A DNA stretch of 64,000 nucleotides from Bilabrum cf. latius (taxonomy: Eukaryota): positions 930,001 through 994,000 of the forward strand of contig OZ237748.1 of the NCBI GenBank assembly GCA_965178125.1. The letters run 5' to 3'. A program made the position numbers and the translations under genes. Positions within the stretch are counted from its first letter, which is position 1. The number at the start of each line of letters is the position of its first letter. Below, in pieces: positions 3 through 64,000 of this stretch. The notes beneath the pieces are model-generated. The model worked only from the letters and a program-made list of their open reading frames with translations, had not been told where the DNA came from and ran no database searches.

Positions 3-2156
3 GACGGGACAGCACCCCACTCCGATGGTACTGCAGTCGAGCAGCATGAGGAGTAGGAAGAGGGTCAATAGCAATCACCACCGGTCGGGGCAGAAGAACC
101 CGGGGAACAAAGCAAAGCATCAGGCATCAGCAGCAGCAGTAGCACCGGCAGCCCCAGCCCCAGCCCCAGTGGCTAGACCCCCCCCCCGACGGCAGGGAGC
201 ACCCACGCACCATTAAGCAGCAGAGGTGTAAGCAGCGCGGGTCCTACACCAGAGCAAGGTGGTGGTGGCGATGACGGCGAAGGGGAGGGGGAAGGGGATG
301 GTGCAGCCGCAGTCGCTTCGATGGCAAAGCCAATCGGCATTGTCAGCCAGGGCACGGCACCTGAGGCAAGCGATGCATTGCATGGTGATGCCCCCGCAGT
401 GCCGGCTCTCACGCCAGGATCTAGCAAAGGCAAAAGCAGGGGCACAATCATGGGCAAAGGCACGCCACCAGCAAAGGCACCGCCCAGCGCGCGCTCCCAG
501 GAATCCAAGGGGTCCAAGGAATCAGCAGGATCTTCATCTTCCAAATTGGCGCTCTCCCCGGAAGCGAAGGCAAGGGAGGCACGGGCCCAGGCTGCTGCCG
601 AACGGCTCTACGGTGCCGCCCAGACTAAGCGGCAGCAGCAGCTGGCCAGGGCCGCTGCCAGGGACCCCGCCTGCACCTTCAGCCCGAAAATCCTGGCCTC
701 TTCGAAGAGGCTCGTGTCCAGGTCCTCGCCCGGTGTGACGAGTGGGAGTGGGGCCAACGGTGTGACGAGTGCTAGCGGGTCCTCCCCTGGGGACCGCCTG
801 TACGAGCAAGCCAAATCCAGGAGGGCGCGCTTGGAGGCGAGGCAGGCCAGCGAGGAGGCGGCGCTCACCTTCAAGCCCAAGATCTCGGCCATGTCCCGGA
901 GGATGGGGGAGCAGCGGAGGAGGCAATCCGGCGGTGGTGGTGGCGGTGGTGGGGGAGAGGGCAAGGAAGGAGGGGGTGGTCAAACCAGCACGGGGGACCG
1001 CCTGTTTGCCCACGCCAAGCGGTAGGAGGAGAAGAGGAAGAAGGAAGCGGAGGCGGTTGCAACCCAAGGATGCACCTTCAAACCTGAAATATCCAGAAAG
1101 GCCAGGGCGGTGGCGGCCTCGAGGGCCAAGAACCCCGACGGCAGTGTGACGAGTGCGGGGGACAGGCTGTACAAGGCGGCCAAGGCGCAGGAAGCCCGGA
1201 AGCAGAAGGCCGTCCGGGAGCAAAAGGAAGCCGAGGAACGTTCGCTGACGTTCCGGCCGCAGACCAACGCCGGAAAGCGCAGGAAGCGGCAGGCCGGGTC
1301 ACCCGATGAGTCGGAAGGCGGTGTGACGAGTGCTCCCGGGGCGGGCGGGAGCCCGTTCGACCGCCTGCACGCCAGCGCCGTGGCCAGCCAGAGGAGGAAG
1401 AGGGAGGCATTCCGGAGGAAAGAGGAGGAGGAGCAATCGGCCAGCCCCTTCAAGCCAACCATCAACGCCACGTCCCGCAGAATGGCGGCGGCGCGATCCG
1501 TTGGCGGGGGAGATGCCGGCGGGTCCAGCGGAACCGGCGCCGCGCGTCCCGCCCACGAGCGGCTCTACAGCCCCGAGACCCTGCGGCGCCGCGCAGCCCC
1601 GGAGCGGAACCAGGGCGGCCTGCTGTCGGAGCTGGAGCAGTGCACCTTTAGGCCCCAGATCGACTCGAGCTCGAGGGTCATCGCGGGGGCCTCCGAGGCC
1701 GTGGGGGGGGGCGACCTCGATGGTGTGACGAGTGCTAGGGGTAGGAGGGGGGCGGGGGGCGGTCCTGGGAGGCACGAGAGGCTGTACCAGCAGGGCCTGG
1801 CGAGCACGCTGAGGAGGAGGCAAGCGGCCTCGAATGTCGGGGGGGAGGGGGGGGAAGAGGCCATGAGGGAGTGCACCTTCCGGCCAAGGGTGACCTACAG
1901 GGGTGTGACGAGTGAGGATGGTGTGACGAGTGCCCTCAGCGCGCACGAGCGGCTGCACTACCACGCCCAGGCGCGGTCGGCCGCCAGGGATGCCCTTGAA
2001 AGGGGGGCGATGGGGGGGGAGGGGCCTGATGCCGGGCTGGCTCTGCTTGCGGGGGGCGGGGCTGCCCTGCCTGTGGCGGCGGGTGTGACCAGTTCTGGGG
2101 GTGGTCGTGGGGAGGATTTGGATGCGCTTCGGGAGGACGGCGCTGTGGTGCTCTGA
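3..2156 (+). CDS. 5'-truncated low-complexity protein with repeated (D/E)RL(Y/F/H)...(C)TFxPxI modules; possibly cytoskeleton-associated
   Basis: One frame open from 3 to TGA 2154-2156 except TAG at 54, 69, 174 and 1023. This joins track ORFs 321-1025 and 1110-2156. The repeat module continues across TAG 1023 (DRLFAHAKR*EEKRK...CTFKPEI vs DRLYKAAKAQEARK...LTFRPQT). Function is inference. Confidence 0.8.
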
Positions 2157-2263
2157 GTGTCGATTTGTGTGACGAGTGGTGCAAGAACGTCGAGCGTACA
2201 GAATGAGTCAAACTGTGGTCGCTGTGTGCAACAACTGCGTCCCTACCAGCGCGCATTGTAACC

Positions 2264-7045: not shown

Positions 7046-7490
7046 GTTGGTGAGGCTAGCAAGGTCTCTGGCATTAAGGTCGCTCGGTGGGCGCAGGACC
7101 CGCTCGAGGTGCAGGCCCAAATGCGACGTAGCGATGCGAAGGAGTGAGAGAGAGAGAGCGGCTAGGGAGGGAAGTACAGGGGTGGGGGTGGGGGGGGGGG
7201 GGGGGGGGGGCGAATGGAGGGGTTGGGGAGGGCGGAGCAGAGGGAGAGGGGCTACGGTTCACCGGAAAGGGGGAGGAAGTAGTGGAGGAGAAGATGATTG
7301 GTGGGGTCACCGGGCTGATACGGCGGATTGGAAGGGGGAGGCACATGCCGGGCAGGTGGGGGGTTGGGCATATGTGTGACGAGTGACTCGGGTCAGGGGG
7401 ATCGGATCACCCGACCACATGCGGATGTGGAAGTTGAGAGGTCACAATTAGACTCGAGCGGCAATCAAGCCGCGTGCTATTCGGGCGCTG
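7046..7490 (+). repeat. Dispersed repeat family, copy 1 (decayed coding or transposon-like segment)
   Basis: Aligns by eye with the reverse complement of 52492-52898 and, more distantly, with 54421-54753. Strong purine skew; contains GTGTGACGAGTG at 7374. Confidence 0.85.
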
Positions 7491-7789
7491 CCCAAGGGCA
7501 GCGCTCGCCAGTTTTACTGCGATTCGTGACGCTGCGAATAAACTACTGGATCGTGTTTAGCGTGCTCAAGACAGTGCAGTGCATCAACCACGCAGGAACA
7601 AGAGCCGGTGCTGCAGAGGCTTGGTTTGCCACAAGCCGAGAGTATCTTCGCCTGCTTATGCCTACTGGCTTCCGGTCCCCACCTGGTGCAAAACCGCAGG
7701 GCCCCGACCTGCGGCCATCTCAAGACCGCCAACACAGCTCATGCCATCGCAGCCACGACTGGCACCAGCTCCACCACACTGGTTCCTCT

Positions 7790-10700
7790 TCAGTTCGTTA
7801 TCGGGAACGTGTGCGTGGAGCCCTCTGCCGCCACTGTTGCTGCGTCCAGCACGACCAGCTTGCCGTCGATCACAATGATGGCCCTGCCGTGGGGGATCCG
7901 GAAGGCGTCCTGGGTGAACGAGCCGGTACTGCTCCCCGGGTGCCATTCAGTGGCAGAGGTGACCTGCCCCGCGGCCAAGTCGCTCGTGGGCGAGCATAGT
8001 GCCCTTCCGTCGGTGGCTGTGTACCTTTCGGTCCTGACGCACACCATCTGGGGCGGTGAATCCGGTGCTGAGCTGCCCCCGATCACGACGGGATTCTTCA
8101 CGTCCATGAGCGGGGTGAACGCCGACGGAGGCATCTTCCTGTCGAGCTCGACCGCTCCGGTTGTCATGTCGACAGACGTCGAGTACACGCCCCCCACAGG
8201 ATATGGGTAGCCGCTCTGCACAATGGTGGCATACGCAAAGGCTCCATCGGATTCGGTCCTGACGGGCGATTGCACGCTCTCCGGTACAGCCGAGGACTGC
8301 TCGGCCCAAACTTCTTGCTGCTGCGTGTCGATGACATAGTGACGGTTGGAGGTCACCTTGACATAAAAGCGGCTCGAGTCCCCCACGGGCAATGCGCCGG
8401 GGCTGGGCCAGTTCCCGGAACCGGCGCTGCCCCCCGGCCCGTCGACGAAGCTGTACAGCCCTGACTCTTCCAGCGTCTGCAGGGTTCCGTTGGTGGAGGT
8501 CAGGATCTGGCTGGAAAGCAGAAGCACCGTCTGGCTGTCGTTGGCCATGTTTGCACCAGGGAAGGCTGGCAGCATGCCATCGATGGACGATATCTACGTG
8601 CTCGAGATCTGGCTGTGCTGCCCCTCGTCTGCCCCGCCAATGGTCCACACACCCTGCCGGGTTGCGACCACCGCGTGGTCCCGCCATGCCACCATGGAGG
8701 GGTTGACATTTCCAGCGCACCCATCTGCGCTCACCACCGTGTGCAGCAAGGCGTCCTCGCTGACCACCTCGAGCGAGTCGCCGTTGCAGAACGCGATGAA
8801 GGGGGCGGAAGAGGAGGCATCGCTCGGAGCCACGTGCTGGAAATACTGGCCCGTGTAGTCCTCTCCGTCAGCGATGGCATCCTCCACAGCGGGCGGCCAA
8901 ACCTCACTCATCTTGACTGGAGTCAGCCCGTCGAGCTTGCCCCCTGCATCAGCCCCCGAGGGCCCGATCAGGTAGAACGACTCGTCTTCGTCGGTTCCGA
9001 TGGCAACGCCCGGATGGTGGCCCATTGGCATCTCAATTCCTCTCAGTAGAGTGTAGGTGCCGTCAAAATAGGCCATCTCGGGGTGTTGGTTGCTCACCCT
9101 GAGCGTCGTCGCGTGGAGCCGCCTCCCCCTCGAGTCCTGGTAGAGGCCGTGAACTGAGGTGGCGTCAGACAGCGTGGGCTGATAGAGGCCGTGCTCTGGC
9201 ACCTTGACCCGGAGCCACTCGATGTGCAGGCCATGGGGGCTGCTGCACGTCTGCACTCCGCCCAGGTACCTCCTTTGGTTGTGGAAAACGATCAGTCGGT
9301 CTGCGAGTTTCCGGGCACCGGCCTCGCTGAACGCAACCATGAAGAAAGCCCCTGCTTCTGCCGACTAGGGGTCGCTGGGGTCGATGACGTAGTCGGCCAC
9401 CACGGTGGATGGGAAGTACATGGGCCTGTAGTTCTCCAGGTCCTCTAGAGGGTGGCTCGTGTTGTACTCGGCGGGGTAGTCGACGATCGCGAGCACGCTC
9501 CTGTCCATCGCAGACCTGAAGATAGAGAATGGCCTGTCAGTGCCGGAGCTTTCGCGGATGTCTGCCCCTCCCAGGCTGGTGGACCTCACTTTGAGAACGT
9601 GCACGCCCCCGTCCACATGCACCTCGTGCGTGTGGTAGACGCTGGCCACCGCCCGTATGCACTCGTCACCCCTGCACTCCAAAGCCAGGGAACCTTCGGT
9701 GATGTTCCTCGGCTCGTCACCCAGCACGTCGTCCACAGAGGGGGCGGTCAGGCACGAGTCACGCCTGTCCCACTCGAATGCGTTGGGCACGGTGTCGCTG
9801 GGATTTGCCATGCTCTGTGCGCCCTGCACGGCGTACGGTGCGTCGACCAGTGACTGGATCAGAGCCGATTGCGCGGAATAGCCCATCGACTGCTGGTGCA
9901 CCTCGTCTCCGTTTGGGAGGACTCTAACCTCGCCGTCGACCTAGGCCGGGACTGGGAGCAGCCCCCGGTAGAACATGTTGAACACATTCAGGCCCGTGCT
10001 GTTGGAGGCTTCGCTGAGGCTCCTCGGTGGACCAGGGGCGGCCGCGTGCTCGAAGCAAGCGATACCGTTTGGCGAGGGTGGCGAGGAGTACCGGCCGTAG
10101 GACACGCACACGGGATCTCCCACCTCGAGGCTGCCCATGGGAGCCCAAAGACTAGGCCTGATCGCGAAGGGATCTTCTCCTTGTGCTGGGAACATCTGGT
10201 GGGCCTCCAGCTCGCCACTAGACGGCACGACGTCGAACCTGTGCACCTTGAAAGTCAGCTGGTTGTTCCTTGGGTGCTTTGTCGATGCGACGACGTACAC
10301 GGTTGAGGGGCCCGCGGGCAGCACCGCGGTCACCTCATCCCCGTACGGGAGGGGGTCGAACCTCCACTTTGTGCTCGAGGCAGGGTCGATCACGTAGTGT
10401 TCGGCGATGTTCACGTGTCCCACCTGGAATGTGGCCGGCCTGCCCCCGGTTGTTGTGGGACGGAAATTGTACAGGGGCGCTCCCGGCGGGCCAAGAGCAT
10501 AATCCAGGGCAGGGAGCAGCTCCGGCTGCCCGGCGGGATCCTTGAACACGTAGAGGAAGTGCCTGGCGGACGTTACGGATGAGAACACCAGCCAGGTGTT
10601 GGAGTCGTCCGAGGGGTCCCAGGTCTCGCTCGAGCTCGAGAGGGCCTTGGTGAAGAGGCCCACCGTTGCCTCGCTGGGTTGCGTCGAAGGAGGCTGGCCA

Positions 10701-13036
10701 GGAGGCACCGTGTACTCGGCGTATGCCTGCGTGTCGCCCTCGACCCTCTGCAGCAGGTGGCCGAATGCCTGCCTGCTGGCCCCCAGCATGATGCCGCCCC
10801 TCCAGGCGACCATGTTGAGCTGGCACCTCGTGGCGTGCAGCTGGGTCGATGTCGCGCTGCTGGAGGGCAGCACCATGAGCTTGCCTTCGAATCCCACGCC
10901 CCCGCTCCCCGAACCGGCCTCAGCGTCGCAGTAAACGAGATCCCCCGAGGACGGCTCCTCCATGTACCTTTGCGTCTGGATGATGGCGGGCTGCGCGTCC
11001 CCAAGCCTCGTGAGAGGCACTGGCTCGAGAGAGGTCGAGTTCTTGGCCAAAAAGTACAGAATCTCGTCATAGTCTCTGGCTTGCGTGAAGAATGGGTTCT
11101 GCGTGTATGGGTACAACTGCGCGTGCACCAGTGCCTTGCCGTCCAGCTCGCCAACACTGCCCAAGATGCGGTCGGGTCGCCTGCCGTTAGAATCGTGCCA
11201 CAGCCCCAGGATGTCGTTCTCCGCCCGAGGCATTGTCCTCGGCATTTCCTTCACCCGGAACCACTCGAAGCGGATGTCCATCACCGGCCCGCTGCAGCCG
11301 GGCAGAGTCCTTGACCCGAAGGGATACCTGTTCGTGTCCTACTAGAGCCTGAAGCTGACTTCGTTTGCGAGCATCTCTGGTCCCAGCGGAGACCTCGTCA
11401 GGTTTAGCATGGCGGCGTGGACCTGCCTGGTGTAGGCCTCCGTGTAGGTGTGCACGTACATGACGAGTGCGGGGGGGGAGGACGGGTCCGTAGGGTCGAG
11501 CACCATGTGACGAGCGCTCTTGGCCGCGCCCATCCAGTTCTGGGGCCTGTACTCGTCCCGGGGCCGGGGGGTCTCGGGGAGCGCGCTGCCGTCGGTTAGA
11601 GCAGAGGAGAAGAAGGCCCCTACCACGCCGTCGTGGAAGTAGTACATGGCGTTGTTGCCGTTCCAGTACCCGCCTTGCAGTCCCCGGCTCAGGCGGAGTT
11701 CCTCCAGCGTTTCCTCAGAGTAGTTCCCGGGCTGGAGCGCGATCCGGAGCCGCAAAAGGTGCGTCTCACCCTCGGGTCCCGTGTCACCGGCCTTCATCAC
11801 GTTAGACAGGTACTGGTAGGCGTAGGGGCTTGACGTCTCGAGGAGTGCGTCTGCCTGGGTGATGTCGGTGGGTGCTGCAGGGAGCGCGTCGGTGGTCGAC
11901 GCGCCGGTTGCAACCTCGCAGGGAACAAGGTCGCTGGCGGTGATGGAGGAAGACCCGCCGCCGCCTCCGCCGCCTCCGCCCGGGAATGGTATGTAGTCGT
12001 CGTCCCGCGGACCCCCTCCGCCGCCACCACCCATGTAAGGGTCATCGTCAACCCCGTCACCGCCCTCGTCATCGGCGAAGACCAGGCGCCGGCTCGGGAG
12101 GACGCTGCCCACGACGGAGCCGTCGGGGTTGCGGGCGGCGGTCAGGAGGAACGGCAGAGGTGGAGGGCCTCCTAGGGAGTTCTATGCGACCGTGATACCG
12201 TCCTGGAAGGCGTCCCCTCCCTCCCCCTCGAGCACGTGCTGGGTGAGCTCCTCGGCTTGGGCGGGTGAGAGGATGGGGGGCCCGTTCTCCGTCGGTTCGC
12301 CCGTGGGGATGCCGATGGTTACCTCGCGGGTTGGAGGAATGCTCTGCCTGTCCACATTGACGGGAAGCATCACCATCACTTCAATCGCCGGTGGTTGGCT
12401 GCCTCCACCCGCGTCGCTCGTGTGGTTGAGGGTACCAGATGCGCTCCGGAGGCCTTGCGAGATGTAGTACTCTATCGGGCCGTCGCACAGACCTTCAGTG
12501 ATTTCCTGCAGTATTGAGTATTCAAGATGTTTCACAAGCTCGGCGTGTCGTATGGGTATGCAATAGGCATGGACGACAAACTCGAGTTTGACGCTGCACG
12601 GGGTGAAGACCACCTCGACATATTTTCGCGCTAAACTCACGTTCTCGAAGCTGAACGTGACTTCACTAAGTTCAGTTGCACCGAAGTTTTCGAGAAAACT
12701 TGCTCTTTGAGGATCACATAGCCGCGTAGCAAGGTCATCAGATGATAGCGTACCTGCGCCGTCGCCGTTGCCGTCATCGCTGCCAGATGCCAGCGCAACG
12801 ACGACTCCAACGATGATGCCAACAAGAATGAAGCCTCCAACAGCAAGCCAGCACCACCAGGCGCAACCAAATATGCGTGTGTGGCCTGTATCGTCCTCCT
12901 TGGGCTTCTGGTTGGCCGAGTCGCCACCTTTAGGCTTTGACTGAGGCTTTTCTACGGGAGCTGCAGCCCCCACAGAGTCCTCTTTCATAGGATTTGCATG
13001 ATCAAACTTATCTTCGCTTGGTTTGGCGTCTGCCAT
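7790..13036 (-). CDS. Intronless ~1748-aa type II membrane protein: N-terminal TM helix and a large, probably beta-rich ectodomain; function unknown
   Basis: Six track ORFs (ends 12182, 11342, 9941, 9365, 8594, 7790) share one frame. The five internal stops are all TAG and the last is TGA. ATG at 13036 (MADAKPSEDKF). Hydrophobic segment WWCWLAVGGFILVGIIVGVVVALA. Confidence 0.85.
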
Positions 13037-25065: not shown

Positions 25066-25083
25066 CATTTGGTGGCATCGTTG

Positions 25084-43605: not shown

Positions 43606-43726
43606 GGGTCACAGCCACACATGAAGACACGGCAGTAGGTTGAGCACGTACAGTGTTGCTAAGTGTGACGTGGCCATCAGATCCCGACAAGAACCGAGCA
43701 CTGTCCAAAGTGACAGGCCGATCAGG

Positions 43727-50400: not shown

Positions 50401-51536
50401 CTGACCTGGAGGTGGAGTTCCAGGAGAGGCAGCGGCAGCAGTCACAGGATCACGCGGCCGCTGTGGGTGCGGGTCCAGGGGCAGCTGACCCCGAGATGGG
50501 GACAGGTGGTGCGGCAGACGGGAGCGATGTGGCGGAGAACAGAGACGGAGTAGAAGTAGAAGAAGACGAAGAGGAAGAGGAAGAGGAACAAGAGGAAGAC
50601 GAAGGAGAAGCCGATGGGACGCAGTGCATTCCCCGGGAGGCATTCGAGCAGGCGGGTGAGGGATCCAAACACGCTCCCTTCACCATTCCAGCGATCAATT
50701 AGGGCGGTGCGGGTGACAGTCGATCCCCCGAGCTGATGGCCATGGGCAAGCTGAAGGTCACCAAGGACTCGAGAGGAAAGCTGCTCGAGACGCTGGCCCA
50801 GGCCTACGAGATGTCCGATGCGTGGGCCGCGGCCAAGACCGTGTGGGGGCTGCTGGCGCAAGGGGATGCGGCTGCGTCTGCCCTCCCCGGCAACGACAGG
50901 CTGTACAAGGACTCTGCCATCCCGAGGCTGCCCCAGGCCGGCAGGGAGCTGGAGGCCATCCTGAGGGGGCTGCTGCAGTCATTGCCCAGGAATCGGCTGC
51001 GGCCCGAGAGCGCCATTGCTGCCCTGCGAGCCCTGCTGTACGGGCCCGGGAGCTGGGAGCAGGTGGAGCGAGCGGCTGGGGAGGATGAGGCTGCGAGCGG
51101 TGGGATGATGGGCGGGTCCAGCGGTGGAGTCACTGGGGCTGCTTCGGGGGCGGGAGCGGGGGATGCTGCATCGGCGACAGCAGCGGGTGCTGAAGCGGTT
51201 GGGTCTGGGCTGGTGGAGCTGGTCCACGGTCAGATGCGGGAGTGCGCGGCTGTGGATGCGGGGCGCACGGGGGTGGAGGGCGTGCCTGCCGCTGGTCTAT
51301 CATGGGGCCTGGCTGGGCCTGCTCCCATGGTGCGGCTGCCGATCGGGGAGGAGGCGTATGAGGCATTCGGGTGGGGCGAGCGGCGATGTGTCCAAGGAGA
51401 GGCGAGCCTGTGGGACCAGTTCCTGCGGCGGGAGGTGCTGCTGCGGGGGGGCGGGCCGGATGGGTCTGCGGCTTGCATGGCCAAGGACTGCGGGGAGCTG
51501 GTGGAGGCGGTGAGGAGGTTCGGGCAAGGAGAGTGA
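47456..51536 (+). CDS. Ankyrin repeats + coiled coil + PINK1-like Ser/Thr protein kinase
   Basis: Exons 47456-47457 (AT), 47633-47726, 47936-48034, 48289-48387, 48611-48709 and 48825-51536. Kinase motifs SQGVNGFVF, LALK, HRNIV, HRDIKADN, LGDFG, GG.G...SPE, DAW. Eleven in-frame TAG; ends in TGA. Confidence 0.85.
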
Positions 51537-52491
51537 TTCAGTTATGCCCACATCGTCCCTCGGCTCGTTGTGCATTGCTTTGTGTGGTTGTTATACCGGG
51601 CCTTCTATCTGATGCAATGCACAACGAGGAGGGGAACGCTGAATTTCCATTGGGCCTTCTATCTGATGCAATCCATAGTAGCTCAATGGAAATTCAGTGT
51701 GTCGCACCTTGCTCTCCTATCGCATATGGATACACCTGGTACGTAGTGCCGCGTTCGACTTACATGAGACTGCCGATGCTTCTGAACACAGCATCGGGAT
51801 GGGGGGATTGTGTATCAGACGTGTCGAAGACTGGTGTCCAAAATCGAGTTAGGACATGCGACGCTGAGATGCCCCATTAGGACACAATCCGGTGTCCAAT
51901 TCTTTCCTCCGAGAATATTTGCCGTACAGCTCTCAAAATTTCCCAAAAATTAGAACTGCCCAAGATCTACGCAAAATTGGCCTCAGATGTGAGCACACGA
52001 AAATGTGGATGCCAGGGGCACTTCTTACAGTCACTGTGGCATACCTCGGGGAACCGCAGACCTTTCTCAACACAATATTACGTACAGATGCCATCATTAA
52101 AACGGAAAGCTGCCGAAGTAAAAGCAAAATAGTGCCGAATAGACAAGTTTAGGAGAACAACTGACTTCCACGGGCTTCTATCCGACAAGGATTAGGATTA
52201 GGGGTACTGAGATCACACGTTGTACACAGCACCCTAATCTCGCAGACAGTCACACATGGTTGCAGTTGGTTTCCTCCGAGAGCCCATCCTCAAAGTTACC
52301 AAAAAAGAAAACTGGCCTGAGGCGCTGGGGACGCAGCAGCGGCCTCCCGAGCCCCGCCAGAAGATACAGAATTGGACCGGCTCTTTGATGCCGCCCGACG
52401 TTCAGCGCGCTCAGTACGCTGCTATGATGCCTTACTTGAATCCATAGTATAGCAAGAGGTTAAGAAGCGAAAACTGGCGAACGCTGCCCCT

Positions 52492-52898
52492 CAGCGCCCG
52501 AATAGCACGCGGCTTGATTGCCGCTCGAGTCTAATTGTGACCTCTCAACTTCCACATCCGCATGTGGTCGGTGATCCGATCCCCCTGATCCGAGTCACTC
52601 GTCACACATGCCCAACCCACACCTGCCCGGCCTGTGCCTCCCCCTTCCTATCCGCCTCATCAACCCAATGACCCCACCGATCATCTTCTCTTCCACCATT
52701 TCCTCCCCCGTTCCGGTGAACCGTCGTCCCCCCCTCCCTTTGCTCTACCCTCCCCCCCCCTAGCTGCCCTCTCTCTCTCTCTCTCTCCCTCTCTCGCACT
52801 CCTCCGCATCGCTACGTCGCATCTGAGCCTGCTCCTCGAGCGGGTCATGCGCCCACCGAGCGACCTCAATCTCAGAGACCTTGCTGGCCTCACCAACG
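52492..52898 (-). repeat. Dispersed repeat family, copy 2 (inverted relative to copies 1 and 3)
   Basis: Reverse complement of 7046-7490. About 100 bp (52492-52600) is nearly identical. Confidence 0.85.
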
Positions 52899-52899
52899 A

Positions 52900-53878
52900 A
52901 GAAGTCACGGACTAGCGGGCTAACAGGTTATTTCAAAGCTCTGGACAAGATTGAACAGATCATTAGGGCGCTTTAGCCAACAAGTTCTAGCAGTTCGTCG
53001 GATATTCGTACATAGAGCAGCTGTCGAACTCTGCAAGTGGAGGCAAGGATCTGTTCACATCTGCGAGAATAGTCGAAGGATTGTGCTTCGCCTCATCGTC
53101 GAAGAGGGCCTTTCTATCGACAACACTGACTTCGTGGGCTCTGCTTGGAGGAGACTGAGGGCAGAAGTACTCACCTTTCTGCAGTCTGTAGATGAGACGG
53201 AGAGACCGCAGGTGCAGTACTTCCTTCAGGCCATGTGTGACATTGCAGCCCTTCTGCATGTTTCTAGCGAAGTCAAAAGTATATTTTCTATTCTTGCGTA
53301 CGTATCGGATGGTGCAAGGTACGGGGCTCGTAAAATCATCACAGTGGAGCGGCTTCTGCTGATGCGGTGCAAGCTGTTAACACAAGCACTTGCTCGCGCA
53401 GTGGGTCCGAGCATGGACAGCAGAGGCTGGCCTTGCACCTGGTGCAATTCCGCACATTGAGAAGGAACTCTTCAAGCAACCTGCTAAGAAGAAGAGAGTT
53501 GAAAGTACGGCAGCGCACATCCGGCAAGAAGCAGAAGAAGACGAGACCAAGGCAGCCGAGGGGTATCTCGATATTGCTGTGCCTGACACCTTGAACGAAG
53601 TTGAGTTGGAAGTCGCCATTGCATTTGGAGAAGTAGCTGCTGGTGGAGATAGTGAAGCTGTGCGGATATTAGATGACTTGATTAGAAGCAATGATGAGGA
53701 GGGCGATACCAGCGATGATGATACCGATACCGAACTGGACGAAGATCCAGTTCCACGAGGCGGTGCTGCAGCTATGGAAGATGGCTCTGACGATGATACA
53801 ATCGAATCCAGCGACGAAGATGAAGGACACCACGCAGATGTTGAGATATACGAGGATTTAGACGATACATTCATGTAA
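52900..53878 (+). pseudogene. Frameshifted ORF remnants with an acidic C-terminal region
   Basis: Overlapping frames 52951-53460 and 53390-53878 (PAKKKRVE, D/E-rich tail) follow repeat copy 2. No recognisable domain. Confidence 0.35.
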
Positions 53879-54227
53879 CGTGCCTGGGTGGGCCGCGTCG
53901 CACTGTGCATGTGTCACGGGCGCGTAGCGACTCACGATGTGTCGGGCCTTTGCATTTAACAGCCCCGCAGGGCCCATTTTTTTGATTAATACCACTATAC
54001 AACTACATTTTCTGTTCAAAAACAATAGGACACAGTTTGAGCAAAACTGCGGCCAATAGGACACAATTTAATAGGACATCGACCCCGATTTTCTGACATG
54101 TCTGTTGTGTATCCATGCAAGGATTGGTTACCCTCTCCAATTCCCTTAAGCTACTTATCGAAACCCAGGACCCCTCCCACCTCTCCCCCCCCCCCCACAT
54201 CCCTGCCCTGCCTGTGCCCCATGCTTC

Positions 54228-54290
54228 ATCCACCCCGTCCACCCCGTCCACCTTGTCCACCTTGTCCACCTTGTCCACCTTATCCACCTT
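54228..54290. repeat. 9-bp tandem repeat (TCCACC(C/T)(C/T)G), ~7 copies
   Basis: Directly visible. Confidence 0.85.
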
Positions 54291-54420
54291 TCCTCCATTC
54301 CGCCCACCCCCTTGTCCCTTCACCTCAATCATGCCACACGACTTGTCGACTCGCCCGAGCGCTGTACCCAGCTCGCGACCTCAGCCTTACCTTAGAGGTG
54401 CAAGCCCCTCACGCGCTATT

Positions 54421-54753
54421 GGTTAGTGAGACTAGCAGGGTTTTTGAGATTGAGGTCGAGCGGTGGTCTCAAGACCGGCTCGAGTTGCAGGTCCAGATGC
54501 GATGCTGCGACGCGGAGGAGAGAGAGAGCGGTTGATGAGGCCAGGTCAGTGATGAAGAGCAGGAACGGCGGCAAGGGGCGGGCGAGGGTGGGATCAGGGC
54601 GGAGTAGAGAGGGGTATAGTGGTTCACCAAGCGGGTGAGGGAGTAATGGAGGGAGAGGAGATGGTTGGTGGGCTCATCCGGTTGATACAGCGGATCGGAA
54701 AGGGGGAGGCACAGGCCGGGCAACTGGAGGTGTGGGCATGTGTGTGACGAGTG
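54421..54753 (+). repeat. Dispersed repeat family, copy 3 (diverged)
   Basis: Collinear with 7046-7385. Similarity stops at GTGTGACGAGTG (54742-54753). Confidence 0.75.
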
Positions 54754-55465
54754 CCACACCAACAGAGAATGCATGCATCATCATCAGTTCGAGCCGAGCA
54801 CGAATTTGGACAAGGCGCAATCAAACATAATCATATTCATACTATCTGGATTTTGAGTTTCGAGACACCGTGGTGAGACCCCTTCAAGATACATTCGTTC
54901 GTGCCTCACACTCGCGCCTTCGTTCCGAAAAGTAAGCACCGCTCTATCGACGGACAATTCAAAAAACGCAAAATATGTCAAGTTCATCAAGTCTTGATTT
55001 GGATTTCGCCGCTCCTTCGCTAGAAAGTGCCCGACAGGCGTTCATTCCCACTTGTATCAACCCCGGGCCTTCTCCCGACTGCAGCCAAAGCCCGCTTTAG
55101 CTCAGCTTGGACGTGAAAACGTGGGGGAATGACGCTTTCCACATTTCCAAATCCGTACCATGACCGCTTTGGTCTAGAGGTTCCTACTGGTAGTACGCCG
55201 TGATGCCGTCCGGTCCACTGCCTCTGCCAGGGAGAGAATATCGCAGGTGATTGATTGTGGTGACTCCTAGCACGTATGATTCAGCTCGAAAGGTATGAAT
55301 CTTGCAATCAATTCAATTCAAGCCGTTCAGCGAAGACGCATCACGCTTGCACGTGCGCCAACAAGGCAAGAGCGGGTTTCGCCGTGATGCCGGATTGGCA
55401 TCGTTGGGAACCGGATCGCACGCCATATGTGCTCTCACGACCGCCGTACAAAAGCACACCACTCT

Positions 55466-57145
55466 TCACGGCTTCTGGGACTCGCGCACATATTCAAACA
55501 CTTTCTTAAAGGCGTCAGTCGGGTATCCCTCCGGGATCAGCGGGGGGGTGGAGAAGAGCGCTCGTTCAAACGTATGCCAGATACCATGGCGCGAGGCCTG
55601 CTGCCGCAGGATCAAATTGCCCGATTGTAGGTCCAGCACCCTGGCCGTGGGACGCATGTAGGACGTGTCGGTGCTCCACAGATACACCCCGCTGTCCATG
55701 TCCACGAGAGCAAGATCCCCCACGCGGTCGCACTCATCCCCCGTGATGACGAGTGCGCACTTCTCGGTCTTGCCCTTCGTCTCTGATTTCCAGGTCTTGC
55801 CTCCCTCTGCGAAGGTCTCCACAAGGTCGCAATCGGACTATAACGTTAGAGAGGCGTCCTTGTTGTCCAATTGCAGCATATGGCCCTTGCGCATGATCTC
55901 ATCGTCCCACAGTGACTACCCAATGGCGGCAGGTCGCTTGGCGAGCGCCTTTGGATCGCAGTGAGGGCGATTCCCATTGATGGCCGCCTGCAGCGCAACC
56001 GTCTTGAGACCGTTGCCGAAAGTCTCGTCTTCGTCAGGACCATCCAGGTCTTCTGACCCCGTAGACCACACGATCGCATTTCCCTGCTGGTGCAGGATAA
56101 CATTTCCATCCCCCTGCACACGAAGGGTATCTGCACCCGGGTCCATCAGCGAGGTGGGCACCCGCCAGATGTACTGCCCGGAGGCGCTGTCCACGATGGC
56201 CAGGTCGCCCTGTGTATCGCACCCGTCCCCCGTGATGACGAGTGCGCACTTCCCCTCGGTCCCCTTGCCCGCCGTGTGGGTCGCAAACACCGCCTCGCCC
56301 TCTCGGTGGACCACCAGGTTGCAGTCTCCCTGCATGCGCAGCTCGACCCCCTCCTCGCCCGCCTTCAGGGCGGCCCCGGCTTGCAGCACCTGCCTTGGAG
56401 ACAGCACGTCGCCGCCGGTCACTTGGTTGTATGATGATTGCAAGGCCCCAGCATCGCAATGCAAGCTATGCACGTCCTCCCGCACCTCCAGATCGAAGTG
56501 GAACTTCCCGAAACCCTGCTTCGTGTCGTAGTAATCGGTGCCCCAAAGCGGCTTTCCGCCTTCGTGAAAGAGTACAGCATTGCCATCCCCCTATGCCAGA
56601 AACGTGTCCACTTCTGGTGTAAAGATAGAGGATTGCACCCGCCAGAGGTACATGCCCGTATCCGTGTCGATGATGGCCAGGTCTCCTTGCGTGCTGCACG
56701 ACGCATCCGTCAAGAGCAGCGCGCAATGCTCGGCATGAGCCTCGGTGTCGCCCGAAACGAACGAACCCAGTTTGTCATTGCGAATAACGACCAAATTGCA
56801 ATCTTTCCGCAGCCGCACTACTGTCGAACCTTTGGACAAGGCATTATCGAATGGGCCCGCGGCAGAGTGCAGAATCTCGCCTCTCTGTAGCCTGTCACCC
56901 TTTGCTGGCTTTTTCCTCGCGGCCAAGGCGCTCACATCGCAGGAATATATGCTAACTTTATCAAATTTGAAGTCGAAAATTGAGTCTTTGCGGCTATGCT
57001 GCCTGCTGCTGCTGGTGGGGATAGAGACCGACGACATCATGGAGCCAGCGCTGCGAAGGTGCTGCTGGCCTTTTGCTCGTCGCCCGTGCACAGTGACCGC
57101 CGAGCAGGCGACAAGAGCTAGTAAAATGGAAACAATTAATTGCAT
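55466..57145 (-). CDS. Secreted 559-aa protein with three tandem bulb-type (GNA-like) lectin domains
   Basis: Signal peptide MQLIVSILLALVACSAVTVHG. Motifs LRMQGDCNLVV, VQGDGNVIL, QGDLAI.D....Y.W. Three track ORFs join in one frame through TAG at 56591, 55916 and 55838; ends in TGA. Confidence 0.8.
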
Positions 57146-57804
57146 TCTTGCAGATTACTTTGTGTTGATGCAGTGGACGGCAAGGGGACGAGCCGGAATC
57201 GGGGCCAGATCCCCGCGAGGCTACACAAGGGGGGGTGAATGGCTCGGGGTGAATGACTCCAAAAAGGGGTGCACCCCCCCACCCCACCCCCAGCCCCTCC
57301 TTTGACCTGGCCTAATATGCATCCACTCAACAATTTGACCAGATAACCGGTTTGTATACATTATTTAAATGATTCTAACACCGGATGGGGTTCTGTGTTG
57401 ATGCCAGAGTGGGAGCGCGTGAATGTCTCGTTGGGTTCCGATGGCGGTTGCGACTGGGAAGGTGCGACCCAGCCAACAGGTTGCTAGCGATGACGCGCAT
57501 ACCCTCTCTGTGTTCAGGAGAGGGACGGAGATTGGGCAATTTTTGCCCACCCTCCCAACCCCCTCCTCCTCGGCGGAGTAGTGCACGTGCTCTTCCCAGC
57601 CCCGGTCAGTCCGGTCAAGGGTCGCGCACAGGCACAGCTTTGTCAGGTCTTGCCATGTCTGATTGTTAACGAGACTAGGTTGCGCGTACACTCTGGCATC
57701 AATACTATTGTGGTGTTATTTGCCTAAATGGTGTCCTTGCAAAGTGTAGTTGAAACTGTTAGGATGAGTCAAATTGTCAATCCGCCGTACGAAAGCAACC
57801 CCCT

Positions 57805-59050
57805 TCACGGCTTCTGGGACTCACGCATATACTCAAACACCTCCTCAAAATCTTCACCCGGGTATCCCTTCGGGATCAGCGGGTGTCCTGAATTACGTGA
57901 CTGTCAGATGTATTCGCGCGTGGCTTGCTGGCGCAGAATCAATGAACCCCCCAATACCTCCAGCACCCTGGCCGTGGGAAGCATGTAGGACGTGTCGATG
58001 CTTCACAGATACACCCCGTTGTCCATGTCCACGAGAGCAAGATCCCCCACGCGGTCGCACTCCTCCCCCGTGATGACGAGTGCGCAATTACGTGCGTTCT
58101 TGTACTCCAGAAATCGTATGAATGCGCTCTGGTAAATTGCAGGTCGCACTTGTCCCTTAGCCGTAGAGGGATTTGGTAATACTCCCTGAAGAGCAGCTTC
58201 CCTCTGCCGAGCAACTCATTGCTCCACAAGAACTCCCCCTTGGCGGCAGGTCGCTTAGCAAGTGCCTTTGGATCGCAGTGAGGGCGATTCCCATTGATGG
58301 CTGCCTGCAGCGCAACCGTCTTGAGACCGTTGCCGAAAGTCTCGTCTTCGTCAGGACCATCCAGGTCTTCTGACCCCGTAGACCACACGATCGCATTTCC
58401 CTGCTGGTGCAGGATAACATTTCCATCCCCCTGCACACGAAGGGTATCTGCACCCGGGTCCATCAGCGAGGTAGGCACCCGCCAGATGTACTGCCCGGAG
58501 GCGCTGTCCACGATGGCCAGGTCGCCCTGTGTATCGCACCCGTCCCCCGTGATGACGAGTGCGCACTTCCCCTCGGTCCCCTTGCCCGCCGTGTTGGTCG
58601 CAAACCGTGCTTCGCCCTCTCGGTACACCACGAGGTTGCAGTCTCCCTGCATGCGCAGCTCGGCCCCCTCCTCGCCCGCCTTCAAGGCGGCCCCGGCTTG
58701 CAGCACCTGCCTTGGAGACAGCACGTCGCCGCCGGTCACTTGGTTGTATGATGATTGCAAGGCCCCAGCATCGCAATGCAAGCTATGCACGTCCTCCCGC
58801 ACCTCCAGATCGAAGTGGAACTTCCCCCTCCTGTGCTCTTCGGGCCCGTGGCTGCTGCCCCAAAGCGGCTTTCCGCCTTCGTGAAGGAGAACAGCATGGC
58901 TGTCCACCTGGGCCACAAACGTGTCAACCTTGGGTGTAAAGATAGAGGACTGCACCCGCCAGAGGTACTTGCCAGTATCCGTGTCGATGATGGCCAGGTC
59001 TCCTTGCGTGCTGCACGACGCATCCGTCATGAGAAGCGCACAGTGGTCGG
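57805..59050 (-). pseudogene. Tandem lectin paralog, inactivated
   Basis: Near-identical to 55466-56730 centrally. Frameshift at ~58090, TGG>TGA at 58003-58005, and no signal-peptide region upstream. Confidence 0.8.
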
Positions 59051-59321
59051 TCCCGTCAGTTGTGTGCCGTAGGTACGGAGGCACGTTACGAAGTGATTTA
59101 GATCGGAGAGATTGTGTAGTATTGGTCGCAAGTCCGAGCGCAGATGTGAGGCTCTCACTTGTTCGGAATTTCGGTGGCACCTGTGTTCTACAGCTGTGCC
59201 CCGATATTCTCAGTAATAATTGTCATTATGTGGCAATACACACTGGGAAGACAGGCAGGGGCAACTCCATAGGAGGTGATTCCCACTGCTTGATGTTTTG
59301 AACTGGTCCAGCGGGAGGATG

Positions 59322-62300
59322 ATCACCTCGACTCTAGGTCGGGCTGTTCACACCTGTTGCACGGATTGCATGATTGTTTTGCATTTGCTTGGAGTTGCAG
59401 GTACACTTGATGTGTTCTGCTCTCTCCATGTGCTCAAGCATCTTCGCTTGTGGCGCTGGGGAGATTTCCAGCCAAGACTGGCGTTGCCACCTCTGCGGTG
59501 CCTTCGCTGTCTTGATGCACAATTTGCATGACGTGATATAAATAATTCCATGCTGGATAGTGTTTGCTTGGTGGACTGTGCGGCTGTTGTAGTCGCTGCC
59601 GGGACTGTTGTTCTTGGCTGTCTCAAGCGGCACGCGGCAGGAGGTTGCTCACCTCGACTCTAGGTCGGGCTGTTCACACCTGTTGCACGGATTGCATGAT
59701 TGTTTTGCATTTGCTTGGAGTTGCAGGTACACTTGATGTGTTCTGCTCTCTCCATGTGCTCAAGCATCTTCGCTTGTGGCGCTGGGGAGATTTCCAGCCA
59801 AGACTGGCGTTGCCACCTCTGCGGTGCCTTCGCTGTCTTGATGCACAATTTGCATGACGTGATATAAATAATTCCATGCTGGATAGTGTTTGCTTGGTGG
59901 ACTGTGCGGCTATTGTAGTCGCTGCCGGGACTGTTGTTCTTGGCTGTCTCAAGCGGCACGCGGCAGGAGGTTGATCACCTCGACTCTAGGTCGGGCTGTT
60001 CACACCTGTTGCACGAATTGCATGATTGTTTTGCATTTGCTTGGAGTTGCAGGTACACTTGATGTGTTCTGCTCTCTCCATGTGCTCAAGCATCTTCGCT
60101 TGTGGCGCTGGGGAGATTTCCAGCCAAGACTGGCGTTGCCACCTCTGCGGTGCCTTCGCTGTCTTGATGCACAATTTGCATGACGTGATATAAATAATTC
60201 CATGCTGGATAGTGTTTGCTTGGTGGACTGTGCGGCTGTTGTAGTCGCTGCCGGGACTGTTGTTCTTGGCTGTCTCAAGCGGCACGCGGCAGGAGGTTGA
60301 TCACCTCGACTCTAGGTCGGGCTGTTCACACCTGTTGCACGGATTGCATGATTGTTTTGCATTTGCTTGGAGTTGCAGGTACACTTGATGTGTTCTGCTC
60401 TCTCCATGTGCTCAAGCATCTTCGCTTGTGGCGCCGGGGAGATTTCCAGCCAAGACTGGCGTTGCCACCTCTGCGGTGCCTTCGCTGTCTTGATGCACAA
60501 TTTGCATGACGTGATATAAATAATTCCATGCTGGATAGTGTTTGCTTGGTGGACTGTGCGGCTGTTGTAGTCGCTGCCGGGACTGTTGTTCTTGGCTGTC
60601 TCAAGCGGCACGCGGCAGGAGGTTGATCACCTCGACTCTAGGTCGGGCTGTTCACACCTGTTGCACGGATTGCATGATTGTTTTGCATTTGCTTGGAGTT
60701 GCAGGTACACTTGATGTGTTCTGCTCTCTCCATGTGCTCAAGCATCTTCGCTTGTGGCGCTGGGGAGATTTCCAGCCAAGACTGGCGTTGCCACCTCTGC
60801 GGTGCCTTCGCTGTCTTGATGCACAATTTGCATGACGTGATATAAATAATTCCATGCTGGATAGTGTTTGCTTGGTGGACTGTGCGGCTGTTGTAGTCGC
60901 TGCCGGGACTGTTGTTCTTGGCTGTCTCAAGCGGCACGCGGCAGGAGGTTGCTCACCTCGACTCTAGGTCGGGCTGTTCACACCTGTTGCACGGAATATT
61001 CCATGCTGGATAGTGCTTGCTACTTTGGCCGGGCAGTCGTGCTTGTTGTCGTCTCGACAAACTTAGCGCCCTGCCCACCGGACATTTCGTTTCGGGTTTT
61101 GCCATGCAAGTAGCAGCATGCAGCAGGAGCGCGATCACCTCGACTCCAGGTCGGGCTGTTCACACCTGTTGCACGGATTGCATGATTGTTTTGCATTTGC
61201 TTGGAGTTGCAGGTACTCTTGATGTGTTCTGCTCTCTCCATGTGCTCAAGCATCTTCGCTTGTGGCGCTGGGGAGATTTCCAGCCAAGACTGGCGTTGCC
61301 ACCTCTGCGGTGCCTTCGCTGTCTTGATGCACGATTTGCATGACGTGATATAAATAATTCCATGCTGGGTAGTGCTTGCTACTTTGGCCGGGCAGTTGTG
61401 CTTGTTGTCGTCTCGACCAACTTAGCGCCCTGCCCACCGGACATTTCGTTTCGGGTTTTGCCATGCAAGTAGCAGCATGCAGCAGGAGCGCGATCACCTC
61501 GACTCCAGGTCGGGCTGTTCACACCTGTTGCACGGATTGCATGATTGTTTTGCATTTGCTTGGAGTTGCCGGTACACTTGATGTGTTCTGCTCTCTCCAT
61601 GTGTTCAGGCACCTTCGCTTGAGCTCTGGGGAGATTTCCAGCCAAGACTGGCGTTGCCACCTCTGCGGTGCCTTCGCTGTCTTGATGCACAATTTGCATG
61701 ACGTGATATAAATAATTCCATGCTGGATAGTGTTTGCTTGGTGGACTGTGCGGCTGTTGTAGTCGCTGCCGGGACTGTTGTTCTTGGCTGTCTCAAGCGG
61801 CACGCGGCAGGAGGTTGATCACCTCGACTCTAGGTCGGGCTGTTCACACCTGTTGCACGGATTGCATGATTGTTTTGCATTTGCTTGGAGTTGCAGGTAC
61901 ACTTGATGTGTTCTGCTCTCTCCATGTGCTCAAGCATCTTCGCTTGTGGCGCTGGGGAGATTTCCAGCCAAGACTGGCGTTGCCACCTCTGCGGTGCCTT
62001 CGCTGTCTTGATGCACAATTTGCATGACGTGATATAAATAATTCCATGCTGGATAGTGTTTGCTTGGTGGACTGTGCGGCTGTTGTAGTCGCTGCCGGGA
62101 CTGTTGTTCTTGGCTGTCTCAAGCGGCACGCGGCAGGAGGTTGCTCACCTCGACTCTAGGTCGGGCTGTTCACACCTGTTGCACGGATTGCATGATTGTT
62201 TTGCATTTGCTTGGAGTTGCAGGTACTCTTGATGTGTTCTGCTCTCTCCATGTGTCCAAGCATCCTCGCTTGTGGCCCTGGGGAGATTTCCAGCCAAGAC

Positions 62301-62400
62301 TGGCGTTGCCACCTCTGCGGTGCCTTCGCTGTCTTGATGCACAATTTGCATGACGTGATATGAAATTCCATGCTGGATAGTGTTTGCTGGGTGGATTTTA
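59322..62400. repeat. Satellite-like tandem array, 326-bp unit, ~10 units, two with an alternative ~125-bp block
   Basis: Units start at ~59322, 59648, 59974, 60300, 60626, 60952 (internally deleted), 61134, 61493, 61818 and 62144. The alternative block is at ~61015-61133 and ~61374-61492. Confidence 0.95.
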
Positions 62401-62536
62401 GGGCGGCTATCGTCGTCGCTGCCAGCACCTTGTCATCGTACTTTCGTCACAATGTTAAAAGTACTCACTACAAGCTAAATCAGAGCATATCTGTGGTCGC
62501 GACGTCACGGTCGCGACGTCACTCACTCAGGTCGAC

Positions 62537-64000
62537 ATGGTTGATCCCGAATTCGTTGGGGCTGTTGAGTTTTGCCTATGCTCATTACCCGATACTGCCG
62601 CTAAATTATCATCATCTCTGGTGAAGCGGATGAAGAAGCATCGCTCAAAGCAGCCCTGCTCGTACCTGTTGGATCCACAACCAGACCGCTGGCCTGAGTT
62701 TGTCGATTCCCTTCTGGACTGGGCTCAATCAGCGGCACCATCGTGAGAACGGCTGTAATTAGTGGTTTTATGCATGACCTTGCTGGTGTGCGCCTGTTCC
62801 TGCCGGGCTGACGACACCCTGGGCGCAGTTCTGGCGCCCGCCACACTCAACAGCGCCTGCCACTGTTTTGCTTCGCCAATCTGGCTTCGCCTGCTTCTGA
62901 CCCCCCCGGCTCCTCGATACCACCAGTATCCAATATTCTCTGTAGTGATATTGCAGGTGCTAGTCCGACATCCTCACTCAAATGGCCCTCGCCCTGAAGT
63001 CTTGCGAGGTGTCCAAATTTGACCGGACAAAGACGGCTCAGGGAGCGCTGCATGCCATGGCACAGGCTGTACTTATCGCACGCGGCGGGAAACCATCTCA
63101 CTAGTATGACTTCCAACGTCTCCCTTGTGCCTCGGCTCTAGCAGCTAGTTCTGATTCCCCATCAGCGGCAGCCCAGCGCTCGTTGTACTGGTATCTGCAA
63201 CAACGCCACAATCACCGGCGTGCTGTTCAGGGGTCTCGCCGAATGGACCAACTCAGCTCTTCTGACAGTGATGAGGCGCACGATGGTACCGCGGCTTCAG
63301 GTCAGACTTCTGCTGAGGCCTCTGAGGGCACTGACTCTTCGGACGAAGATGAAGATGAAGAAAGCGAGACCGAAGGTCTACCTCTCCATGGGAGCTCCCG
63401 CGCTGCACGTACTAAGAGCCCCAAGCTGACCCGTTCATTGTCCGCGGCTTCATCGGCTGAGGCAGGCAAAGCCAGGATCCGTAAGCTGCTGGGAGCACCC
63501 TCTCGCGGCTCATCCCCGGCAGCCAAAGGCCGGTGGTCGGAGGTTTATGAGGCGGCTAGTAGGGAGTCCGTGACTACGGCTCCCCCTACCTCGCTCACTC
63601 GGCTATTCGGAACAGCCCTGGACAGTAGTCACCGTCGTGCTCTCGAGGACCTTCACGCAGCAATCGTTCGTCATGCCCAGGCCTCTGCCGGCAAGCCGAA
63701 GGGTCTCACTGACGTTCAGAGCCAACTTGCATCGTTAACTTCAGACATTGTGGCCTTGCAGCTCGATCCTGCCATGGATGGCATTGACTACCTCCGTGTG
63801 GTGACCGGAAAACTGGCTGAGTACGCCTACGCGTTCTATGGGCGCAGTGTGACGATCGACGATGAGGGCCGCTTCCATGAACGTCGGTCTTCATCCAAGA
63901 CGTCACCACCGAGCTACCAGGAGTTCAGTACCCAACTGCAGGTGCGCCTCGGCCGCGTCGCCCGTAGTCTAGAACACGTCTTGACCGACGTGAAGGACCT
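62537..64000 (+). CDS. Hypothetical protein, runs off the window end
   Basis: Exon 62537-62742 joins in phase to 62957 through a GTGAG...TTGCAG intron. The frame then stays open to 64000 except TAG at 62961 and 63102. No domain recognised. Confidence 0.6.

Follow-up and report, generated by a model that had tools for sequence, protein, structure and literature searches.

The 64-kilobase (kb) stretch of contig OZ237748.1 analysed here (hereafter the window, at its full length) carries genes on both strands at a G+C content of 58%, and in-frame TAG recurs throughout the coding-like frames of these genes. Our subject is how UAG is read in this DNA; all frame and stop tests cover this one window. 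Among its genes is NOP56, identified by a match to the Pfam family Nop (E = 5e-69). The gene is split by an intron of 363 nucleotides (nt) at 30189-29827 (-), which begins GTGAGG, has canonical GT..AG borders and contains stops in all frames. Because it holds a NOP56 gene with a canonical intron, the window is, judged by its sequence, nuclear and eukaryotic, from an organism that splices its introns in the ordinary spliceosomal way. The Rfam search gave no match in the 64 kb.

We called a frame coding-like when it had an excess of purines and of G at codon position 1, or contained a Pfam domain, or had a paralogue, and 15 stop-to-stop frames were so classed. As these frames are bounded by TAA or TGA, the absence of internal TAA and TGA holds by construction. 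The frames and genes of the window are listed below, with the first base of each in-frame TAG in brackets.

3-2156 (+): frame of 717 amino acids that runs off the 5' end of the window, with repeated 'DRLY...TFKP' units and no Pfam family; four TAG (54, 69, 174, 1023); ends at TGA.
7790-13222 (-): large protein of 1810 amino acids with no Pfam family; six TAG (12184, 11344, 11341, 9943, 9367, 8596); ends at TGA.
20703-22175 (+): frame of 490 amino acids with weak ankyrin matches under the Pfam cut-offs; three TAG (20706, 21228, 21852); ends at TGA.
22272-23393 (-): frame of 373 amino acids, its C-terminal part paralogous to the frame at 20703-22175; two TAG (23105, 22550); ends at TGA.
27037-27954 (+): Cys-rich, membrane-like frame of 305 amino acids; one TAG (27220); ends at TGA.
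28097-30427 (-): NOP56, with exon 1 at about 30427-30190 and exon 2 at 29826-28097; no TAG; ends at TGA.
30433-34290 (+): frame of 1285 amino acids with long inserts of low complexity and a repeat of the prenyltransferase alpha-subunit type; three TAG (31063, 34006, 34285), the last immediately before the terminal TAA.
35243-36538 (+): frame of 431 amino acids, probably an upstream exon of the frame at 36526-39753; two TAG (36299, 36497).
36526-39753 (+): low-complexity frame of 1075 amino acids; seven TAG (37258, 37390, 37744, 38254, 38368, 39310, 39724); ends at TGA.
43625-44341 (+): partial duplicate of the kinase gene; TAG 43736 lies opposite a CAG of the kinase (Gln683).
45558-46478 (+): frame of 306 amino acids, identical in a contig of public run X5; three TAG (45633, 46191, 46305); ends at TAA.
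48753-51536 (+): frame of 927 amino acids, an N-terminal coiled coil followed by a PINK1-like protein kinase domain; 11 TAG (48819, 49005, 49113, 49176, 49212, 49275, 49278, 49521, 50130, 50271, 50700); ends at TGA.
55466-57154 (-): frame of 562 amino acids with three B_lectin (bulb-type) domains; three TAG (56593, 55918, 55840); ends at TGA.
57939-59222 (-): tandem paralogue of the lectin gene, 82% identical in amino acids to 55466-57154 over 318 residues; no TAG.
62949-63998 (+): frame of 350 amino acids that runs off the 3' end of the window; two TAG near its start (62961, 63102).

The kinase duplicate, 7 kb upstream of that gene, corresponds to the 3' part of the kinase (50800-51536), with 605 nt aligned at 96.4% identity. 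Similarity of the tandem paralogue to the lectin gene is lost in the last third, and the lectin family is multi-copy in four public runs, judged by contig depth.

In-frame TAG in the coding-like frames

We counted 47 in-frame TAG among the 10,325 codons of the coding-like frames, 12 of the 15 frames bearing them, close to the figure of about 50 in 13 gene models given by a first-pass annotation of this DNA. Its individual examples were mostly reproduced. Seven TAG are indeed present in 36562-39753 and ten in 48825-51536, the latter including 50271, which precedes the HRD motif of the kinase, and the TAG-TAG pair at 49275/49278; 7790-13036, said to hold five, has six, among them the second of the two TAG-TAG pairs in coding-like frames (11344/11341). 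The intact frames are likewise free of frameshifts, over up to 1810 codons. The statement that the example frames contain neither TAA nor TGA is true, but as an argument it is circular, since TAA and TGA define the frames. TAG positions also fall inside domains, in the sugar-binding motifs of the lectin and in the core of the kinase.

With TAG read as sense, 45 stop-to-stop frames reach at least 250 amino acids as against 26 under the standard code, and the longest measure 1810, 1285, 1075 and 927 amino acids, as against a longest of 980 under the standard code. Frame length alone is insufficient evidence, because freeing TGA yields still more long frames: 69 frames of at least 300 codons are obtained when TGA is freed, 33 when TAG is freed and 19 when TAA is freed, compared with 16 under the standard code. 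The window contains 1800 TGA, 997 TAG and 644 TAA triplets in total. We therefore set the observed lengths against 200 shuffles in which local composition was kept. The longest frame free of TAA and TGA over all 200 shuffles is 794 codons; four observed frames (927-1810 codons) exceed it, and no shuffle (0/200) reaches them. Nine frames of at least 500 codons are observed; the shuffles average 0.5 such frames and never have more than 4.

The stops can also be compared by what surrounds them. In a bridge test, which scores a stop that has at least 100 stop-free codons on each side, 29 TAG, 21 TGA and 3 TAA were found to bridge such stretches, compared with shuffle means of 3.9, 3.8 and 2.4, respectively. 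Both flanks are coding-like for eight of the 29 TAG, for none of the 21 TGA and for none of the three TAA. Under a model of nonsense mutation, TAG is expected to account for 52-54% of mutations, and the observed 47 of 47 has a P of about 1e-13, a figure made too extreme by the choice of frames without TAA and TGA. The base following TAG (position +4) is G in 12 cases, C in 15, A in 10 and T in 10; this lack of a readthrough context argues against programmed readthrough. At the level of sequence analysis, the in-frame TAG are confirmed, and they support UAG as a sense codon in the window.

NOP56 has no TAG. The G+C content at its third codon positions is 0.84, the highest among the tabulated frames, and the gene is presumably highly expressed. 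Absence of TAG from NOP56 would fit avoidance of a rare codon, though at the size of this gene it is not significant alone.

Contigs of public runs were aligned over 44800-57400. A 5.4-kb contig of run X5 (organism B, study P2) is identical to 44800-49699, a contig of run X1 (organism A, study P1) to 47301-49641, and a contig of run X6 (organism C, study P3) to 48825-49641. These identical contigs cover 11 TAG, three in 45558-46478 and eight in 48819-49521, and the sample behind one of these runs may be that from which the window itself comes. Because contigs from three studies are identical, these 11 TAG are real DNA and no slip of the assembly. At 50271, the TAG before the HRD motif, every aligned contig in four of four runs reads C, that is CAG. 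The contigs at this position have a summed depth of 1145 in X1, compared with about 73 for single-copy stretches, and on account of this depth they are taken to be paralogues, with CAG, from a multi-copy kinase family. No splice-like joints were seen in the public-run contigs over 44800-57400. A structural variant is present in runs X1, X6 and X8, in which 45245 is joined to 46139 by 14 other letters, replacing 893 nt (45246-46138) that include part of the frame at 45558-46478.

The residue at UAG and the remaining terminators

UAG most probably stands for glutamine (Gln, Q), and the comparisons that point to this come from the lectin, from paralogues, from homologues and from the ends of related fragments. 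The middle B_lectin domain of 55466-57154 aligns with solved monocot mannose-binding lectins over both copies of QxDxNxVxY, which we take to be the bulb-lectin motif, and the solved lectins have glutamine in both. When the domain copies of the lectin gene and its tandem paralogue are aligned, TAG 56593 occupies a column that is glutamine in all four other copies; TAG 55840 occupies the other motif column, where the remaining copies have Q, Q, K and K. Searched against proteins of near length, the lectin gene gave no match.

Four TAG sites have a paralogous codon opposite them. Two of these codons are CAG (at lectin residue 188, and where 43736 of the duplicate faces Gln683 of the kinase); the other two are GAG at lectin residue 413 and AGG at residue 439, in a degenerate stretch. 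In the large frame at 7790-13222, P0278, a fragment from a Logan assembly that is 75% identical, crosses TAG 9367 with conserved flanks and has glutamine at the TAG site.

A HMMER search with the kinase against 1.84 billion representatives gave 560 matches, 30 of them at E <= 1e-10, the closest relatives being fragments from Logan, ENA and JGI assemblies. At TAG site 507 the nearest relatives have glutamine (P0123, 62% identity), glutamine, glutamate (E; P0132, 73%) and arginine (R), and glutamate is found also in P0128, P0130 and P0134. TAG sites 460 and 650 are variable, the nearest relative having leucine (L) and alanine (A), respectively. An alignment with PINK1 is uninformative on the residue, because sites 460 and 507, which are P and D in human PINK1, are positions that vary. 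Over the eight TAG sites of the window that can be aligned, a small sample, the nearest homologue has glutamine at four and E, R, L and A at a single site each, against a glutamine background of 3.7%.

The ends of related fragments give a further comparison. The fragments were presumably called under the standard code, so that an end is read as a probable TAG, and some ends may be those of contigs. At four of nine distinct end sites the fragments stop just before a glutamine of the window, namely Q560 (P0123, P0132), Q419 (P0125), Q683 (P0124, P0275) and Q1462, a CAG (P0278). Opposite the remaining five sites the window has G, G, E, S and R (AGG). Codons adjoining TAG encode glutamine (CAA or CAG) in 8 of 94 cases, compared with the 3.7% background (p = 0.02), a higher share than is seen beside the codons of any amino acid.

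UAA and UGA remain terminators in the window. Fourteen frames end inside it, 12 at TGA and two at TAA, and in all 14 the same frame runs on for only 16-127 codons past the terminal stop before the next TAA or TGA (33 and 69 codons for the two TAA-ended frames). The sole long same-frame pair across a TGA is a 337-codon open stretch upstream of the frame at 22272-23393, beyond TGA 23394, and this stretch sits in a perfect 74-nt tandem repeat. With TAG counted as glutamine, the 425 glutamine codons of the coding-like frames comprise 47 TAG (about 11%), 276 CAG and 102 CAA. Were TAA also glutamine, about 17 TAA would be expected from the ratio of CAA to CAG; none is seen internally, an observation that is partly circular.

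Two wider codes were tried and rejected. A code in which UAA and UAG both specify glutamine (UAR=Gln, NCBI table 6) fails on the absence of internal TAA from the 15 frames and on the long-flanked TAA, none of three being coding-like. A code of the Condylostoma or Amoebophrya sp. ex K. veneficum type, in which all three stops are ambiguous, fails on the long-flanked TGA, of which 0 of 21 are coding-like. The first-pass annotation had proposed that UAG is sense and glutamine with UAA and UGA still stops, and this is supported by the comparative evidence of lectin motif, paralogues, homologues and frame ends. It had equated this code with NCBI table 15, correctly, as that table reads TAG as Q and both TAA and TGA as stops.

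The best explanation and its rivals

We consider it quite probable that the window derives from a GC-rich eukaryote in which UAG is a sense codon, most probably for glutamine, and in which UGA (mostly) and UAA are the stops, the code of NCBI table 15. By analogy with other such codes, UAG would be decoded by a tRNA-Gln with the anticodon CUA, derived from tRNA-Gln(CUG), and the eRF1 of this organism would have lost or weakened its recognition of UAG while keeping that of UAA and UGA. TAG would drift into genes from CAG by C-to-T transition. UAA need not change under this scheme, because tRNA-Gln(CUA) would read only UAG.

A number of observations weigh against this reading. Neither partner of the proposed mechanism is seen in the 64-kb window: ARAGORN found no tRNA genes there, leaving the decoding tRNA unseen, and the eRF1 gene does not lie within it. 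Pfam assigns a family to five of the 20 frames scanned, one of these below the cut-offs, and none to the other 15; most frames are lineage-specific. At 50271 the window's own T is matched by no aligned contig, and only the C contigs of higher depth are found there. The 21 bridging TGA join long open stretches, all in frames without coding-like composition. Judged by their coordinates, most of them probably lie antisense to listed genes, where the reverse complement of TCA would be the main interruption of GC-rich antisense frames. Taken alone, a codon-usage scan that was stop-blind and cross-validated separates TAG poorly from TGA: its top 5% of scanning windows contain, per 1000 codons, 5.3 TAG, 5.0 TGA and 0.16 TAA (one occurrence), compared with 7.9, 14.5 and 5.3 elsewhere, a depletion of TGA of about threefold, and the codon bias is weak. 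At four of the eight alignable TAG sites the nearest homologue departs from glutamine, with E, R, L and A. Finally, in three of the 15 frames a TAG lies within 15 codons of the terminal stop, where about one such frame is expected at 4.6 TAG per 1000 codons: 34285 directly precedes a TAA, and 39724 and 36497 stand nine and thirteen codons before a TGA. UAG may occasionally be used as a terminator.

These near-end TAG are also what favours an ambiguous UAG, glutamine inside genes and a context-dependent terminator of some of them, as in Condylostoma, karyorelictids and Blastocrithidia. We regard such a code as unlikely here, since the excess is small (about 0.08 by our own Poisson estimate) and 36497 is probably at an exon end. 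Moreover, all 14 frame ends are TGA or TAA, the ends defined by homology (NOP56 and the kinase family) are at TGA, and no context signal follows TAG. That UAG specifies a residue other than glutamine seems improbable to a greater degree. The candidates are glutamate, as in the ciliate PL0344, serine, as in Scotinosphaera, leucine, as in the rhizarian exLh and some phyllopharyngeans, and lysine or tyrosine. Glutamate gains from the lectin TAG that faces GAG in the paralogue, with D in the other domain copy at that column, and from kinase site 507, where the relative at 73% identity and several others have E; leucine gains from site 460 in the nearest relative. Yet glutamine is the only residue to recur among the eight nearest-homologue sites, serine occurring at none and leucine at one, and two TAG fall on the glutamine of the lectin QxDxNxVxY motif. 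TAG and CAG also face each other, one transition apart, in near-identical paralogues.

The standard code could be kept if the TAG were converted to CAG by U-to-C editing of the mRNA, and the informative comparisons, which point to CAG or glutamine, would be satisfied by editing as well. We find this very hard to credit: the TAGs share no sequence context that could act as a guide, and we know of no eukaryote that edits nuclear mRNAs site-specifically at such density. The relatives, moreover, appear to have in-frame stops of their own at other glutamine positions, which fits a free interchange of CAG and TAG under a changed code. The standard code could be kept, too, if the TAG-bearing frames were pseudogenes, retained introns or products of assembly or base-call errors. 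The 15 scanned frames that lack a known family would allow this, and degenerate duplicates do exist in the window, at 43625-44341 and in the 3' part of 57939-59222. We nevertheless give this explanation next to no weight, as TAG alone, never TGA or TAA, occurs inside the frames, which stay free of frameshifts over as many as 1810 codons, an orthologue aligns across one TAG with conserved sequence to either side, and contigs from other studies are identical. The TAGs lie in domain cores and not in intron-like sequence; the sole verified intron has the usual GT..AG borders and is interrupted by stops in every frame.

Glutamine at UAG with UGA and UAA as stops is a type of code already known; its bearer may be new. 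As a tentative proposal, which we rate as somewhat short of probable, the window would belong to an undescribed lineage known only from environmental assemblies that gained UAG=Gln independently, the first GC-rich case with ordinary introns outside ciliates and metamonads, and its environmental relatives would share the trait. If true, the lineage would be a natural system for how eRF1 uncouples recognition of UAG from that of UAA. Each independent uncoupling of the two codons bears on discrimination by eRF1, and on codon capture versus an ambiguous intermediate. A GC-rich genome with TAG at about 11% of glutamine codons and TAA still a stop would be useful to set beside the ciliate cases, which are AT-rich. 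Table 15 would be needed for annotation, orthology and metagenomic binning of the lineage, because standard-code gene callers cut genes at every TAG; database relatives appear as TAG-cut fragments.

Repeats, relatives and known codes

The window is rich in a short repeated word. The 10-mer GTGACGAGTG occurs in 49 copies in 64 kb, compared with about 0.1 expected for a random 10-mer, usually within G(G)TGTGACGAGTG(C); the 12-mer GTGTGACGAGTG occurs in 39 copies and, inside coding sequence, lies in frame. Examples of the 10-mer are found at 735, 1905/1923, 31456-31492, 32437-32485, 36208/36223 and 38947-39064, and, in a metagenome contig described below, at L025:895-919 and L025:1654-1693. Coding-like frames, which make up 48% of the window, contain 42 of the 49 copies, read in 26 cases in sense as 'VTS', in four as 'CDEC/GDEC' and in 12 in antisense as 'TRHT' or 'HSSH'. 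As the 10-mer is read in either orientation and in several frames, its cause lies at the level of DNA, not of protein. Of its copies, 16 are found in the low-complexity inserts that lengthen the prenyltransferase alpha-subunit-like gene at 30433-34290 (+) to 1285 codons; the Pfam match to this gene is a single short PPTA repeat (residues 569-585). A role of the 12-mer as a 5' splice site was ruled out, as the NOP56 intron starts GTGAGG, and a search of the open-access literature for the 12-mer as a described element returned only unrelated papers.

The 12-mer also stands in the middle of a dispersed repeat that spans 270 nt or more, at 7250-7520 (+), 52480-52750 (-) and 54620-54890 (+). The copies with the motif at 7376 and 52596 are alike throughout, and that at 54744 is alike up to the motif and then diverges. 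Depth in run X1 over 52378-53219 is 35-75 times that of single-copy DNA, which points to a high-copy element there. Tandem repeats are found elsewhere in the window. A 326-nt unit forms two arrays with 96-99% matches, at 59314-60995 (5.2 copies) and 61471-62395 (2.8 copies), and further arrays comprise a 76-nt unit (6.9 copies, 13913-14434), a perfect 74-nt unit (4 copies, 23309-23606) and (GCTGGT)x18.7 at 39526-39637.

The best matches of NOP56 among the 120 listed, a set from which most eukaryotic supergroups are missing, are 42-60% identical. The best full-length matches that carry a name are diatoms at 45-50% (Thalassiosira, Odontella, Chaetoceros and Conticribra), too distant to place the organism of the window. 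The lineage-specific proteins of the window have relatives only in environmental assemblies. One JGI metagenome contig, L025 (2399 nt, 58% G+C), consists of a single 799-codon open frame with four TAG and six copies of the 12-mer and, from these features, looks like DNA of the same lineage. It was the only lineage-like locus among the 120 listed from a metagenome scan for pairs of the 10-mer. A scan of genome contigs for pairs of the 12-mer gave 21 loci, none of them related; the contig with multiple hits belongs to a bacterial bin and is a tandem array resembling a satellite.

UAG was first shown to be uncoupled from UAA as leucine in the rhizarian exLh and as glutamine in Iotanema (Panek et al. 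2017, PMC5304391). UAG=Gln arose twice in phyllopharyngeans, some others of which read UAG as leucine, and Protocruzia is cited for the same glutamine reading (McGowan et al. 2024, PMC11687900); UAG is serine in Scotinosphaera (Li et al. 2021, PMC8271138; also cited in PMC11687900). A change of meaning nearly always takes UAA and UAG as a pair, and uncoupled cases are few (PMC5304391, PMC11687900). The remark of the first-pass annotation that reassignment of UAG alone is rare agrees with these sources (PMC5304391, PMC11687900, PMC8271138). Open-access papers and preprints yielded no GC-rich lineage outside ciliates and metamonads with UAG=Gln only, and the supplements of PMC8271138 and PMC11687900 may list more UAG-only taxa.

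NCBI table 15 has the same codon reading as the window, but it is a table, not a lineage, and is silent on origin or mechanism. In exLh, Scotinosphaera and some phyllopharyngeans UAG is decoupled as in the window, but the residue is leucine or serine (PMC5304391, PMC8271138, PMC11687900). The table 6 code is used by many ciliates, hexamitid diplomonads, some Ulvophyceae, Streblomastix and Amoeboaphelidium (PMC11687900). It resembles that of the window in its use of glutamine and in a presumed route via mutated tRNA-Gln anticodons, and differs from it in that UAA is sense there, whereas the coding-like frames of the window have no internal TAA and two of them terminate at it. A eukaryote outside the ciliates for which in-frame UAG has likewise been proposed to be glutamine is Amoebophrya sp. 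ex Karlodinium veneficum; unlike in the window, all three stops are contextually translated in frame and the transcripts are AT-biased (PMC6394959, PMC12005148). On these two grounds it is rejected as the source of the window.

In Iotanema spirale (Metamonada, Fornicata), as in the window, UAG alone is reassigned, to glutamine, and UAA and UGA are stops, but Iotanema is an anaerobic fornicate known from its transcriptome and UAA is its primary stop (PMC5304391). The window, by contrast, has 58% G+C and TGA as its main stop (12 of 14 frames), and nothing links it to Fornicata. Macronuclear genomes of ciliates tend to be rich in A+T and densely packed with genes whose introns are tiny. From this pattern the window departs in being GC-rich and in its 363-nt GT..AG intron, its long low-complexity genes and its kilobase tandem repeats. 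Protocruzia tuzeti and two phyllopharyngean lineages have made the same reassignment as that seen in the window, a case of repeated origin, but they are ciliates (PMC11687900).

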